From IMG/VR virus record IMGVR_UViG_3300015263_000719, positions 15,834 to 79,833 of that record: a stretch of DNA of 64,000 bases; one strand, given 5' to 3'. Numbering within the stretch: the first letter of the stretch is position 1; each line of letters begins with the position of its first letter. Shown in pieces: positions 60,311 to 64,000 of this stretch. The translations under genes and the position numbers were made by a program. Source of the DNA: a virus. Under the pieces are notes generated by a model, which saw only the letters and a program-made list of their open reading frames with translations, did not search any database and was not told the DNA's origin.

Positions 60311-60922
60311 ATGAAATTAATTGCATATGATATGCTAGATGAGATTCCTTATCCAGTAACACAAAGTATTGCATATGAACCAACAAGAAGCATTATTAAT
60401 CATTTTAATGATGCTATACTGACAATATTTGAAGAGAGTGATAAAGAAAATCTGTATATTTACTGTACAGGTAGTTCTGGTTCATTCTTATCAGCTATTT
60501 TATCTGTTGCTTTTTATCAAAGATTTGATAATAAAGGAAAAGATTATAAAATAACTATTAATCACATAAAGAAGGATGGTGAAAAAGCTCATAAAACAAG
60601 TTTAAATGTTACTACTTATGAGGCTGCAGAAGCATTTAATGTTATTGTGGATGATTTTATAGCTTCAGGTAGGACTATAGAGAATATCATGAATGGTATT
60701 GACAGGCACTTTACATCATCATCATCAGGTCCTATGATAGATTTACTTGCTATTACTGGTTTTGTCAGTTATGGTAGTATAGATATATTTAATGATAGAA
60801 TCTATTCTTGTTTAGCAAGAAATTATGGAGGAATTTCCAATGACTGTGAATTAATAGAATATGACGTCTGGCAAAAAAGAAAAGGGCTTTGTCCCTCAAA
60901 AAGAAAAATGCAAGTACTGTGA
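60311..60922 (+). CDS. Type I phosphoribosyltransferase-family protein
   Basis: PRPP-binding loop VIVDDFIASGRTI; TGSSG motif. Confidence 0.8.
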   Translation: MKLIAYDMLDEIPYPVTQSIAYEPTRSIINHFNDAILTIFEESDKENLYIYCTGSSGSFLSAILSVAFYQRFDNKGKDYKITINHIKKDGEKAHKTSLNVTTYEAAEAFNVIVDDFIASGRTIENIMNGIDRHFTSSSSGPMIDLLAITGFVSYGSIDIFNDRIYSCLARNYGGISNDCELIEYDVWQKRKGLCPSKRKMQVL

Positions 60923-61037
60923 GCAAGATAGACATTATCCTTGTAGATGCTTAGAGCATTTACAGGGATGTGTCTATGCTACAGAATCTGTAAAGAAGTC
61001 TATTAATAGACGATTTAATTTTACAAAGTTTCTTTAA
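60861..61037 (+). CDS. Possible small Cys-rich protein (58 aa), not in the ORF track
   Basis: MTSGKKEKGFVPQKEKCKYCEQDRHYPCRCLEHLQGCVY...; overlaps the PRTase end by 62 nt and contains a long hairpin. Confidence 0.3.
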   Translation: MTSGKKEKGFVPQKEKCKYCEQDRHYPCRCLEHLQGCVYATESVKKSINRRFNFTKFL

Positions 61038-61049
61038 TAGTATTAAAAC

Positions 61050-61080
61050 TTGATAGTTTATGAAAAATTACTTAACTTTG
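61050..61080 (+). promoter_or_regulatory. Bacteroidota-type promoter driving the ncRNA locus
   Basis: TTG-N20-TAACTTTG, followed by about 1 kb with no ORF of 60 aa or more. Confidence 0.8.
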
Positions 61081-61113
61081 TACTTCAAAACCCCAACTAA
61101 TTTAAACAAAAAC

Positions 61114-61282
61114 GTTGAATTAAATGATCAGATGGATGAAAGGTGCAGTAGGAACCACCATGTTGTATCTCCACAAGATACTCAGCCCTTCAGTTCATGA
61201 CAAAAGATTAATACTTATTATGTGGATAATAATATTAATCAAATGGTGTAAGTAATCCATATAATAAGCTGTTTAATTCAAT
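61114..61282 (+). ncRNA. Structured RNA domain A (multi-branch)
   Basis: Closing helix GTTGAATTAAAT/GTTTAATTCAAT. Internal stems: ATGGATGAAAGG/CCCTTCAGTTCAT, GTATCT/AGATAC, GATTAATACTTATTAT/ATAATAATATTAATC. Confidence 0.6.
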
Positions 61283-61290
61283 AAAGAAAT

Positions 61291-61587
61291 CATGTTAAAC
61301 TGGGAAACTCCAGTAAAGAAGAGTGATAGTATCAGTTTAAAGCTGTTGTTTTGGCAGGTACTTTTTAATCGCATAATTAGATGAGTAAATATTTCTACTG
61401 GGAGGTGGGATATTATACATTGTAATGATTTTTAAATACACTCGGTTTTAAGTTGAAAGTCTGTTTGTTGTGAGATAGAGTCTTGTTTGATTCTTCGCAC
61501 GGTCAGCAGGAGTTTTGTTGATTATCTGGCAAAAGAGTCAGGTATCAGCATATTATCACTTAGGTCTTTATTTTCACAGTTTACATG
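61291..61587 (+). ncRNA. Structured RNA domain B (about 300 nt, ornate multi-branch)
   Basis: Nested long-range helices CATGTTAAACTG/CAGTTTACATG, TAAAGA/TCTTTA and AGTGATAGTAT/ATATTATCACT enclose at least five hairpins rich in G-U pairs; ends 3 nt before a tRNA-like 5' end. Confidence 0.65.
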
Positions 61588-61590
61588 GTC

Positions 61591-61844
61591 GCTAGGATAG
61601 CTCAATTGGTAGAGCACCTGGTCTGCTTTTTTCATCAGAAATGTAAGTTAATTATTTATTGTTGTGAGAACATCTGAATCCATAAGGGGTTGTGGGCAAT
61701 GTTCACAAATAGATAAAGATTAACTTAGTTTTTGGTGTTAGATAAGTTCAAGCTGAACATACTATGTGAAAACTAGTATTGGGAAGCTAGATTCTTATCG
61801 TTGGTTAGACCAGGAGGTTGCAGGTTCAAGTCTTGCTCCTAGCA
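61591..61844 (+). tRNA. tRNA-like gene 1, with a 188-nt structured insert replacing the anticodon loop; identity undetermined
   Basis: Acceptor GCTAGGA/TCCTAGC + A73; D arm GCTC-AATTGGTA-GAGC; stem CCTGG/CCAGG; variable loop AGGTT; T arm GCAGG-TTCAAGT-CTTGC; no encoded CCA. Confidence 0.8.
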
Positions 61845-61949
61845 CTTATTTTAAAAATACTCCTCACACTTATTAATATATCTTGGTTAATTGGACATTG
61901 GCTGTTCCAAAAACCGTTTTAAGTAGATTAGATTAATTTGAGAGAGGAA

Positions 61950-62085
61950 GAGGTGATAGCATTATGGTTCAATGCATTCTTTTGATTGAAGTGGTGTTAG
62001 TTTTCATATACCTTTTAATAGCGATTCTCTATTCTTATGACTTCATGATAGAGAAAGATTTGCAGGTTCAAATCCTGCCACCTCA
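61950..62085 (+). tRNA. tRNA-like gene 2, with a 69-nt branched insert in the anticodon arm; identity uncertain (TT-GAT follows the stem)
   Basis: Acceptor GAGGTG/CACCTC (6 bp); D arm GCAT-TATGGTTCA-ATGC; stem TTCTT/GAGAA; T arm GCAGG-TTCAAAT-CCTGC; followed by a T run. Confidence 0.7.
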
Positions 62086-62109
62086 TTTTTTTCATTAAAT
62101 AAAAATTCC

Positions 62110-62721
62110 ATGAGACAAATTATAATAATGATTTGTGTACTATTTATATTAATGTTTACAAGCATTAGAGATACTGCACATGTCACTTACACATACACAG
62201 CACCAGTTGTTGAGTATTGTGAAAACAAGTGGTCAAAGCTGGACACTTTGACTGCAATTCCTATTAATGACACTGAAGATTTTATTGAGTATTATGATGT
62301 AATATTCAGATATGTTGCTGAAAAGACAGGACTATCTGAAGCATTTATATATGCTTATTTTGTTATTGAAACAGCAGACAGACATGGTAAAAGAGCCAAT
62401 TCTGAGTTGTGGAGATATCACAATAATCCAGGTGGTATTAAATGGAAATCATTTTTATCAGATAAGATTGTTAAATATGAAGATGATTGCTTTGATGAGA
62501 ATGGTAATGAAATAGACTGTAAATTTGCATCATTTAATACTATAAAAGAAGGTATAGATGCATGGTTACTGGTCTTTAATGCAAATAGATATGATAGATG
62601 TAAAAACTTGCCTCTCAAGGAAACATGTAAGTGTTTCCGTGATAGGAAATATCATTCATCACCTAGATATTTGCATCGGTATTTACTTGCTGAAGAGTAT
62701 AACTCTTTGGTAATTAGATAA
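62110..62721 (+). CDS. GH73 glucosaminidase/muramidase with an N-terminal signal anchor (candidate endolysin)
   Basis: A...IET...HNNPGGIK...FASF.TIKEGI...RY pattern; hydrophobic N-terminus. Confidence 0.75.
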   Translation: MRQIIIMICVLFILMFTSIRDTAHVTYTYTAPVVEYCENKWSKLDTLTAIPINDTEDFIEYYDVIFRYVAEKTGLSEAFIYAYFVIETADRHGKRANSELWRYHNNPGGIKWKSFLSDKIVKYEDDCFDENGNEIDCKFASFNTIKEGIDAWLLVFNANRYDRCKNLPLKETCKCFRDRKYHSSPRYLHRYLLAEEYNSLVIR

Positions 62722-62738
62722 TTACTAAATTTCCACAT

Positions 62739-63002
62739 ATGGAAACAAATATAATCTCCCATAGACCAAAAGTGGCTATGAGAGACAGAGTTATTTGTAA
62801 AATTGAAAACATAGATGAGATTACAAGTCAGGCTAATTATAATGGTAATGTAATACCGTTATTTACTACATTTGGTGGAGCAAGACTGTATCCAGAAGGA
62901 CATAGAGATTATAAAGATGATCTTGAAGATGTTTATCTGGAATATATTGTTGTATCATTTCCTGATACACCAATTTGGAAGACAATTAGATTGTCACTTT
63001 AA
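62739..63002 (+). CDS. Hypothetical protein (87 aa)
   Basis: ORF in the operon. Confidence 0.55.
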   Translation: METNIISHRPKVAMRDRVICKIENIDEITSQANYNGNVIPLFTTFGGARLYPEGHRDYKDDLEDVYLEYIVVSFPDTPIWKTIRLSL

Positions 63003-63031
63003 TAATTTTTTAAAACTTAATATATTATTAT

Positions 63032-63301
63032 ATGTTGGTTTTTCATGATACAGATGGTCATATTCTTATTACAGTAGAACAGCAAAATTTAGATAAATGT
63101 GTAGCTGTTATGGAAAAGTATGATCAAGGTACATTAAAATGGAATGGTAAACTGATTGGTAACATGACAGTTAGCCATATATATAATTGTAAAAATTATA
63201 TCAGAACACGTTGGAAAACTACATCCTTATCACAAGTTTGGCTTGATATCTTTGATGCAGAGATAAAAGCTAGAATGAGAAAGATTGTAAAGAGAAGATA
63301 A
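63032..63301 (+). CDS. Hypothetical phage protein (W...I..M...HI.NC motif)
   Basis: ORF in the operon. Confidence 0.6.
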   Translation: MLVFHDTDGHILITVEQQNLDKCVAVMEKYDQGTLKWNGKLIGNMTVSHIYNCKNYIRTRWKTTSLSQVWLDIFDAEIKARMRKIVKRR

Positions 63302-63324
63302 GGCGTTTTTATACATATATTGTC

Positions 63325-63352
63325 TAAGGGAGTTACTACGGTAACTCCTTTA
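63325..63352 (+). terminator. Stable cUACGg-capped hairpin directly 5' of tRNA-like gene 3 (terminator or processing signal)
   Basis: TAAGGGAGTTAC-TACG-GTAACTCCTTTA. Confidence 0.55.
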
Positions 63353-63366
63353 ATTGGTCTCATAGC

Positions 63367-63762
63367 TCAACTGGATAGAGCATGGGTTTTCTTGAGAATC
63401 AACTGATTATGGTGTTCAAGACGGTGACAATTAGAGCATAATAATATGCATTTATCAAGCTCTTGTTGTATTTTGGCTTTACTTTTGAGTCTAAGCTTAG
63501 ACCACTCAGCATCTTTTTCTTCTGGATTAAGATGATGAAAGTCAAATATACAATAGTTATCATTAGTACCTTCAAGGTTACAGCGATCACATTTGTTACC
63601 TAAATAAATAATAGCATCTATTTTACGTTGAATCCAACGTTTTATACATCTATTATTAAAACATTGTTTACAGTAGCTCATCACTCCTTGTGAATGAGTG
63701 GATGATTTATAGAAATCATCAGTGCTTTTAGTGATTTTGCAATCTATACATTTCTTTTCCAT
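63367..63762 (-). CDS. HNH homing endonuclease with Zn-finger motifs, inside the tRNA gene on the opposite strand
   Basis: CIDC..CKQC, CDRC, FDFHHLNP and KCILLCSNCHRLEH; the stop codon falls in the tRNA D arm. Confidence 0.88.
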   Translation of the reverse strand: MEKKCIDCKITKSTDDFYKSSTHSQGVMSYCKQCFNNRCIKRWIQRKIDAIIYLGNKCDRCNLEGTNDNYCIFDFHHLNPEEKDAEWSKLRLKSKAKIQQELDKCILLCSNCHRLEHHNQLILKKTHALSS

Positions 63763-63766
63763 CTTG

Positions 63767-63797
63767 TAAAGATAAGAAGAATTGTTTAGAAATCCTA
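63767..63797 (-). promoter_or_regulatory. Probable promoter for the HNH gene, inside the tRNA insert
   Basis: Minus strand TAG-N20-TATCTTTA, the same -7 variant as at 20255, 4 nt before the ATG. Confidence 0.5.
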
Positions 63798-64000
63798 ATT
63801 CTAATCACACTATTTTCAAGAAACCCAAGGTTGTAGGTTCGAGTCCTACTGGGATCACAAGAGTCACTTGAGATTAACTAGTATAGTGACAGTCCTTGGA
63901 AGAGTTAAGCTTCATGAAGGAACCTGTAGACCTAGGCTGGTCTACCAGACTGAGTAGGAAAAAATTAGATCCGAGAGGGCAGACACTAAATAGCTGTGAA

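Follow-up and report, generated by a model that had tools for sequence, protein, structure and literature searches.

The window analysed here, that is the whole stretch of 64,000 nt, forms the final 64 kb of an IMG/VR contig of 79.8 kb (~72% complete, G+C content of 32.5%) and was found to carry near its end a tRNA-Arg(UCU) gene which is split in the anticodon loop by an HNH homing-endonuclease gene in antisense orientation. The terminase, portal and capsid proteins encoded on this phage contig are crAss-like. Of the public sequencing runs, a marine sediment metagenome gave the best DNA match to the contig and may be its source sample. The best match of the terminase is to that of Cellulophaga phage phi14:2 (31% identity), followed by those of Bacteroides crAss-like phages, and by the capsid protein the closest phages share only 47–59% identity. 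The TerL relatives belong to phages that infect Bacteroidota (Cellulophaga, Bacteroides), and the closest relatives of the HNH protein were found in Bacteroidota metagenome-assembled genomes (MAGs).

The 5′ half of the tRNA gene (63356..63392, plus strand) comprises positions 1–36, namely the 5′ strand of the acceptor stem, the D arm with A20, the 5′ strand of the anticodon stem and U32–U36, while the 3′ half (63821..63857, plus strand) comprises positions 37–73 with the CCA end not encoded. Both were delimited by sequence and ARAGORN, the former also by a 20-mer identical in 42 intact genes and the latter by a profile of the 3′ parts of related introns, which matches this T-arm region. Between them lies an insert of 428 nt (63393..63820, not assigned to a strand) made up of an open reading frame (ORF) and a 58-nt upstream region. 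When the halves are joined, ARAGORN predicts tRNA-Arg(tct), whose 7-nt loop (UUUCUAA) is canonical, whose D loop contains A20 and whose variable region measures 5 nt, and all stems pair (acceptor 7/7 with two G-U pairs, D 4/4, anticodon 5/5, T 5/5), which bears out the original prediction that removal of this segment gives a canonical tRNA-Arg(UCU). The joined exons are identical to uninterrupted tRNA-Arg(UCU) genes at 64 of 74 positions, the differences being mostly paired stem changes by which pairing is kept. ARAGORN reads the split gene itself as tRNA-Lys(CTT) with a 426-nt intron; this assignment was rejected, as its stem register is poorer and homology favours Arg(UCU).

The 20-mer closing the 5′ half, GGATAGAGCATGGGTTTTCT, runs directly into the remaining anticodon loop in 42 contigs with intact tRNA-Arg(UCU) genes, and the exact AAACCCA with which the 3′ half of the window begins was found in 23 of these. 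Comparison with these empty-site alleles (...GGGTTTTCT|AAACCCA..., with the intact sequence GGGTTTTCTAAACCC or ...GGATAGAGCATGGGTTTTCTAAACCCAAGG...) therefore places the junction exactly at U36|A37. None of the 42 intact alleles sharing the 20-mer contains an HNH gene. The proposed search for insert-less alleles was thus successful as regards intact tRNA-Arg(UCU) genes but not as regards related phages: none was found in close relatives of this phage, a 29-mer of the 3′ half was absent from viral contigs, and a search of viral contigs for relatives of a neighbouring window protein, made in order to find the empty allele, returned none. No second or nested tRNA was detected in 63300–64000 by ARAGORN and Rfam, nor any uninterrupted tRNA on the whole contig.

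The inserted gene (63367..63762, minus strand) encodes an HNH homing endonuclease of 131 aa, as identified from the ORF list, a family alignment and a match to the HNH endonuclease family phrog_2255 (E 3e-27, residues 1–127) over the whole ORF length. The HNH motif FDFHH...NCHRLEHH is present with its zinc-binding cysteines intact, and all 24 invariant columns of alignment A1, which was built from 27 homologues, are kept. The last nine codons and the stop codon overlap the 5′ half of the tRNA, the TGA (63367–63369) corresponding to U12, C13 and A14 of the D arm. The antisense ORF accounts for 370 of the 428 nt of the insert and leaves 58 nt (63763–63820), in agreement with the sequence features first described, including the stop codon in the D arm. 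The G+C content of the gene (31.8%) matches that of the phage. However, four of its six arginine codons are CGN (CGT or CGC), compared with 4% phage-wide, for which reason the gene looks foreign. It may be added that the gene splits an AGA-reading tRNA while itself favouring CGT and CGC.

The upstream region of the HNH gene (63763..63820, minus strand) was characterized by a promoter scan and by alignment A3. The promoter-like element reported for these 58 nt is present but weak, being a sigma-70-like match (TTGAAA-16-TAGGAT, 63819..63792) at 9 of 12 positions. A short motif of the form GATTAGAATT...ATTCT is common to this region and to free-standing HNH relatives in alignment A3, with a spacing of 50 vs. 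46 nt and just ten invariant alignment columns. Just inside the 3′ junction of the insert, TTTTC (63813..63817, plus strand) is a direct repeat of U31–C35 (63387–63391), which may represent microhomology or a mutated remnant of an old anticodon loop.

In 62800–64000, Rfam at E ≤ 10 matched no ribozyme of the group I, group II or small self-cleaving kind; the positive control, a group I intron of tRNA-Arg(UCU) at locus L085, scored 75.6 bits against RF00028. The intron core motifs GCAGAGACT, GGTGAAGAGACAGTCCAGACC and GTGAAAAC..GGTATG are all missing from the window insert in an alignment with related introns, and the sole match of an nhmmer profile of the 3′ parts of these introns was the T arm of the 3′ exon. 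The non-ORF sequence amounts to 58 nt compared with ~200–245 nt in the related introns, some 200 nt being needed for a ribozyme. The earlier statement that no ribozyme core is evident was upheld by Rfam, by the family profile and by the core-motif alignment alike, and the proposed check with group I covariance models matched no group I fold.

A total of 165 HNH homologues was collected and 160 homologous loci were examined, consisting of the 80 best viral loci together with bacterial loci (designated here by L numbers). Of the 80 viral loci, 27 have a tRNA-Arg(tct) no more than 400 nt from the HNH gene, among them 15 of the 22 closest loci, and the same tie is seen in bacterial genomes. The view of the insert as a mobile HNH element aimed at the anticodon region of a tRNA is supported by this occurrence of the family at tRNA-Arg(UCU) in many phages and bacteria and by the existence of empty sites. 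At L063–L069 (49–55% identity) the HNH gene is convergent with an intact tRNA-Arg(tct), its stop codon lying a few nucleotides from the 3′ end of the tRNA, and the C-terminal tails of several homologues (GFEPS, GIEPT or RRDSNP) are what a T arm encodes in antisense. In at least L068 and L069, what is left of an older tRNA-Arg follows ~50–57 nt beyond the HNH start, a dead 3′ part which sets in within the anticodon loop (TT(T)TCTAAG...). The first letters of this remnant in the free-standing relatives are TTTTCTAAG..., and its distance to the HNH start equals that of the TTTTC of the window.

The closest HNH relatives among those with readable gene context are four MAG loci in which the gene lies antisense inside tRNA-Arg(UCU) after U34, with 57–60% identity and inserts of 553–597 nt, namely L184:2298-2968 (Bacteroidetes), L186:309-952 (Chitinophagaceae), L187:1533-2196 (Saprospiraceae) and L188:2298-2955 (Saprospirales), all on the minus strand. 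The Rfam group I model missed these inserts (L184, L186–L188). However, they align over the core with the validated L085 intron (ATGGTAAT, GCAGAGACT, GCACCTAA, GGTGAAGAGACAGTCCAGACCACAAA, GTGAAAAC..TAGTTGGTATG|) and are on this basis regarded as group I introns. Their antisense HNH ORF is placed between the GGAAA..CCTTC and ATGGTAAT elements, a position which may be that of the P5 loop. The same intron occurs with an unrelated HNH gene in the tRNA-Arg(UCU) of a related crAss-like phage (L060:9806-10617), and for the intron family (MAGs and L060) the Rfam group I model either gave no match or just 17.5 bits. Some HNH homologues have tails reading FPDQP, the antisense translation of the ribozyme motif GGCTGATCAGGAAA. 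At L085 and L121 the neighbouring tRNA-Arg(tct) contains a bona fide group I intron of 209 nt after U33, and L108 has a near-identical insert of 206 nt at the same site, which itself is not among the listed Rfam matches.

All other tRNA inserts with an HNH gene of this family in the 160 loci measure at least 511 nt, as against the 428 nt, 58 of them non-coding, of the window insert, and the window is the only case among these loci of a bare HNH gene with neither a ribozyme nor a replacement tRNA. The insertion point at 36/37 lies 2 nt downstream of the intron site of the family at 34/35, a distance compatible with insertion where, or close to where, the enzyme itself would cut. The original prediction had likened the junctions to those of group I introns. 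This applies to the letters (...UUUCU|UGAG...UCAAG|AAACCC), with U ending the 5′ exon and G ending the insert, but not to the site, as the actual introns of tRNA-Arg(UCU) are found at 33/34 and 34/35. By our estimate the U|...G| pair of letters is expected by chance at ~6% in this composition, and it is weak evidence for group I.

More distant members of the HNH family (35–49% identity) were observed in sense orientation in inserts of 554–710 nt within other tRNA genes, their hosts including candidate-phyla-radiation bacteria and Nitrospira. The genes concerned are tRNA-Asn(GUU) (L231, L232, L241, L245, L249, L259, L260, and L263), tRNA-Thr(UGU) (L238, L248, and L258) and tRNA-Gln(CUG) (L262). 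Further members adjoin tRNA-Phe(GAA) genes with inserts of 202–295 nt. At L144 (minus strand, from 1368, on a 268-kb metagenome contig) the tRNA-Arg(UCU) is identical to the empty-site allele as far as GGTTCGA in the T loop, where the similarity ends; this looks like another insertion or truncation.

With moderate confidence, the locus is explained as an HNH cassette that was inserted antisense in tRNA-Arg(UCU) and left behind an inactivated accessory tRNA gene. The nuclease gene is intact, its family is tied to tRNA-Arg(UCU), and the cassette holds neither a ribozyme nor a spare copy of the tRNA, for which reason the tRNA would be unable to mature and its function has presumably been lost. 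The enzyme presumably recognizes intact tRNA-Arg(UCU) alleles in co-infecting genomes and would cut them near the anticodon. Repair would then copy the cassette into the cut allele and fix it at or near the cut, with the flanking tRNA halves acting as homology arms, while the split target would shield the carrier from its own enzyme. Such a process would amount to intronless homing which has gone into the target gene itself. A broken tRNA gene could be tolerated because the host supplies tRNA-Arg(UCU). Plain gene disruption is also the simpler reading, in that the HNH genes of the relatives are always accompanied by a ribozyme or, when free-standing, by an intact tRNA-Arg. An origin by simple homologous recombination from a cassette with an intact tRNA was considered and rejected, since the repeated 3′ halves would lose the HNH gene and not the new 3′ half.

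Several observations weigh against a broken tRNA gene. Neither tRNA half has a flaw, where an old pseudogene would be expected to have some; the same would be seen if the event were recent or if the flanks were under selection as homology arms. AGA makes up 87% of the arginine codons in the long ORFs of the phage and CGN 4%, confirming the dominance of AGA noted at the outset, and the loss of tRNA-Arg(UCU) should therefore carry a cost. As the contig is ~72% complete and stops 143 nt past the tRNA-Arg gene, an intact copy or more tRNAs may lie further on. Two other tRNA-like genes on the contig, at 61591–61845 (with an insert of 179 nt) and 61948–62087 (~62–65 nt), are both interrupted and neither gives a fully canonical tRNA, and phage relatives have, besides normal tRNA clusters, tRNA-like genes whose anticodon region is deleted or expanded. 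Folding is also strand-specific. The z-score of the HNH insert is −4.25 for the tRNA-sense strand compared with −2.54 for the mRNA strand, and the antisense strands of ten homologous HNH genes, taken as controls with 30 shuffles per sequence, gave values of +0.15 to −3.26, all weaker than that of the window. Directly upstream of the first tRNA-like gene, an ORF-free stretch of ~500 nt (61085–61590) has a z-score of −3.84 on the plus strand vs. +0.54 on the minus strand, with 34 G-U pairs. The interrupted neighbours and the plus-strand structure hint at an RNA-level function for the locus.

A further observation against a broken gene is that the ends of the insert can form a closing helix of 16 bp with a bulged U34 and one G-U pair. 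Its 5′ arm (63383..63399, plus strand) consists of the 5′ strand of the anticodon stem, the loop and the first seven nucleotides of the insert, and its 3′ arm (63812..63827, plus strand) of the last nine nucleotides of the insert, A37, A38 and the 3′ strand of the anticodon stem, as derived from minimum-free-energy folds, sequence pairing and duplex energy. The anticodon stem is thereby extended by U32-A38, U33-A37 and, beyond the bulged U34, by nine pairs from C35-G63820 to U63399-A63812. The near-perfect pairing of the insert ends described earlier is thus real but of modest significance, being moderately beyond chance by the duplex energy of the ends (p ~0.03); nine contiguous in-register pairs have a chance of ~1e-3 by our estimate. 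If the helix forms, the pairing implies that the two junctions would be staggered by 2 bp with 3′ overhangs in the manner of RNase III, whereas in the tRNA-Asn-like gene described below the junctions have the opposite stagger.

The neighbouring tRNA-like genes have features of their own. The one at 61591–61845 is tRNA-Asn(GUU)-like with its insert after U33, and its spliced form would have an anticodon stem of 6 bp. The 179-nt insert folds into a ~110-nt rod and a GAAA-loop hairpin (z −5.3 on the plus strand vs. −3.6 on the minus strand), with seven G-U pairs and no A-C mismatch. In this gene GTGAAAACTAGTATTGGGAAG|CTAGA resembles the 3′ end of a tRNA-Arg group I intron and the start of its 3′ exon, and the insert may be an intron relic; compared with tRNA-Asn and tRNA-Arg group I introns, it has exon matches and one short P9-like stretch only. 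Neither the 179-nt nor the ~62-nt insert had homology by blastn to the sequences gathered in this analysis, and at E ≤ 10 Rfam gave no relevant ribozyme match over 61500–61900, 61800–62200 and 60900–61650, and no match at all in 61085–61590.

The gene at 61948–62087 scores 32 bits as an Rfam tRNA and has ~62–65 extra nucleotides in the anticodon loop, its anticodon stem extending by way of a symmetric UGAU/UGAU internal loop to a further helix of 6 bp. Position 37 would not be a purine under any splice choice, and one nucleotide is missing from the acceptor stem. It is overlapped by a hydrophobic ORF of 44 codons (61964–62098) ending just before a glucosaminidase-like gene (62110–62721). Among the phage relatives, L059 and L060 (G002 and G003) have aberrant tRNA-like genes (e.g., G002:65587-65643 and L060:3699-3767), of which one is without an anticodon arm, one is tRNA-Arg(UCU)-like with a 4-nt loop (CCUGA-UUCU-UCAGG) and others have an additional 26–69 nt in the anticodon region. 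These could be scars of tRNA-targeting nucleases or alleles resistant to them.

Taken together, two rival readings propose a ribozyme-free rescue or use of the pre-tRNA at the level of RNA, either through splicing by a host double-strand RNase and a ligase or as a stable unspliced antisense carrier. This is conceivable but on the whole unlikely. If true for a rescued tRNA, it would represent a type of tRNA splicing for which no bacterial example is known.

As to the unspliced form, the locus would produce a stable tRNA-shaped RNA whose anticodon arm is antisense to the HNH mRNA and which would restrain the nuclease or have some other role; the locus would then hold three such tRNA-like RNAs with a cargo. 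It is consistent with this that folding is specific to the plus strand in the ORF-free stretch as well as in the 179-nt and HNH inserts, that among 11 homologues none has a more structured antisense strand than the HNH gene of the window, that the other two tRNA-like genes give no canonical tRNA under any splice choice, and that relatives have genes with altered anticodon regions. However, the z-score comparison depends on 30 shuffles and ten controls, and any gene lying antisense within an operon makes antisense RNA without the need for a scaffold. Contigs from other metagenomes offered only near-identical copies of parts of the locus (three metagenomes) and cross-mapping tRNAs from other organisms, and no diverged copies usable for covariation were found. 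The scaffold or antisense-RNA role that had been put forward for the insert is left unsupported, and we consider it doubtful.

In the spliced form, a host endonuclease would find both junctions presented by the closing helix, and the halves would be rejoined by an RNA ligase to a working tRNA-Arg(UCU), a pathway which we regard as improbable. The 16-bp helix closing the insert, its 2-bp stagger with 2-nt 3′ overhangs as expected from the sequence for RNase III products, the perfect halves together with the high use of AGA, the inserts in all three tRNA-like genes of the contig and the presence of RtcB in a control Bacteroides genome would all suit such a pathway. To our knowledge, though, no protein-mediated tRNA splicing of this type exists in bacteria, and we know of no ligation step for intervening sequences excised by RNase III, the products of which (5′-P, 3′-OH) are unsuited as RtcB substrates. 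The helix is A-U rich and weakly significant, and with 16 bp uninterrupted it falls short of the approximately two turns typical of RNase III-excised intervening sequences. Neither RtcB (PF01139) nor an Rnl2-type ligase (PF09414) was matched in the contig or in four relatives, in a search which did not include T4 Rnl1-type ligases and splicing endonuclease families. The opposite stagger in the tRNA-Asn-like gene also argues against this reading, as does the dependence of the HNH relatives on a ribozyme or a spare tRNA instead. Removal of the insert by a non-ribozyme mechanism, as originally proposed, thus found no support.

A self-splicing ribozyme hidden in the insert, with a core overlapping the antisense coding sequence, appears very improbable. 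The U before the insert and the G at its end, the residence of the closest ORF relatives in group I introns of the same tRNA and the good folding of the plus strand would be in keeping with it. Against this stand the negative Rfam result, the lack of every one of the strongly conserved core motifs, an insertion site unlike that of the related introns, and an ORF homologous to its protein family over the full length with 58 nt alone outside it. An assembly artefact can be practically dismissed, for although the locus comes from a single metagenomic contig ending shortly downstream, a contig from an unrelated run is identical over 63249–63402 including the 5′ junction, and the exact HNH protein with its junction-spanning tail occurs on two contigs, one of them of 111 kb.

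The preferred explanation of a bare HNH cassette in a broken tRNA gene can be set against several known systems. The F-Tfl HNH enzymes of phage T5 are free-standing homing endonucleases of phage tRNA gene clusters. SegB of phage T4 is another such enzyme (PMC2330249), and intronless homing has been reviewed (PMC3984707). The window gene resembles these in having its own upstream region, in its expected spread by cutting of alleles without the gene followed by repair, and in belonging to a family found beside tRNAs in dozens of phages. However, those genes sit between tRNAs which remain whole, whereas the HNH gene of the window splits an anticodon loop. The L068 and L069 cassettes have the same HNH family (49–55%) and appear to have the same right-hand order, consisting of the HNH start, ~50–58 nt of upstream sequence with the short shared motif and the 3′ part of a tRNA-Arg from the anticodon loop onwards. 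They differ in that a complete tRNA-Arg is kept at the HNH stop, where the window has only positions 1–36 and thus no working copy.

An endonuclease gene splitting a gene without an intron is reportedly also represented by mobE in nrdA of phage Aeh1. "Fractured genes" with split inteins have been described as well (PMC2677866). In both, as in the window, a nuclease gene lies inside its target with no surrounding intron, but their protein pieces reassemble or are rejoined by inteins, and no comparable rejoining of the tRNA halves is evident here. In archaea, tRNA introns are recognized by a bulge-helix-bulge structure with two 3-nt bulges, 4 bp apart, at the splice sites (PMC4090602). The window insert is similar in that its ends pair and extend the anticodon stem and in that it has no ribozyme. 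Its junctions, in contrast, lie in a continuous helix with a single 1-nt bulge (U34), and the host is bacterial.

Group I introns with endonucleases are established inhabitants of bacterial tRNA anticodon loops, as in tRNA-Leu(UAA) and in tRNA-fMet with I-SspI (PMC3984707). With the group I introns of tRNA-Arg(UCU) (L085, L184–L188, and L060) the window insert shares the gene and loop, the U before the 5′ junction, the G at its end and the antisense position of its nearest HNH relatives inside them. It differs in having no core, in its site at 36/37 instead of 33/34 or 34/35, and in its length of 428 nt (58 nt non-ORF) vs. 553–597 nt. In the window and its relatives, one endonuclease family occurs at a single target in three states, namely within a group I intron, as a free-standing gene next to an intact copy of the target, and bare within the target itself. 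An intermediate with a bare nuclease is assumed by the "endonuclease-gene invasion" model for the origin of mobile introns (PMC3984707) but is rarely seen, because the gene is destroyed. The arrangement in the window matches this intermediate and, since the tRNA is accessory in a phage, is plausible there. Phage tRNA genes provide a place where the bare intermediate can survive, and the locus offers a natural system in which to ask two things, namely at which position the enzyme cuts and in what way introns and nuclease genes join or part.

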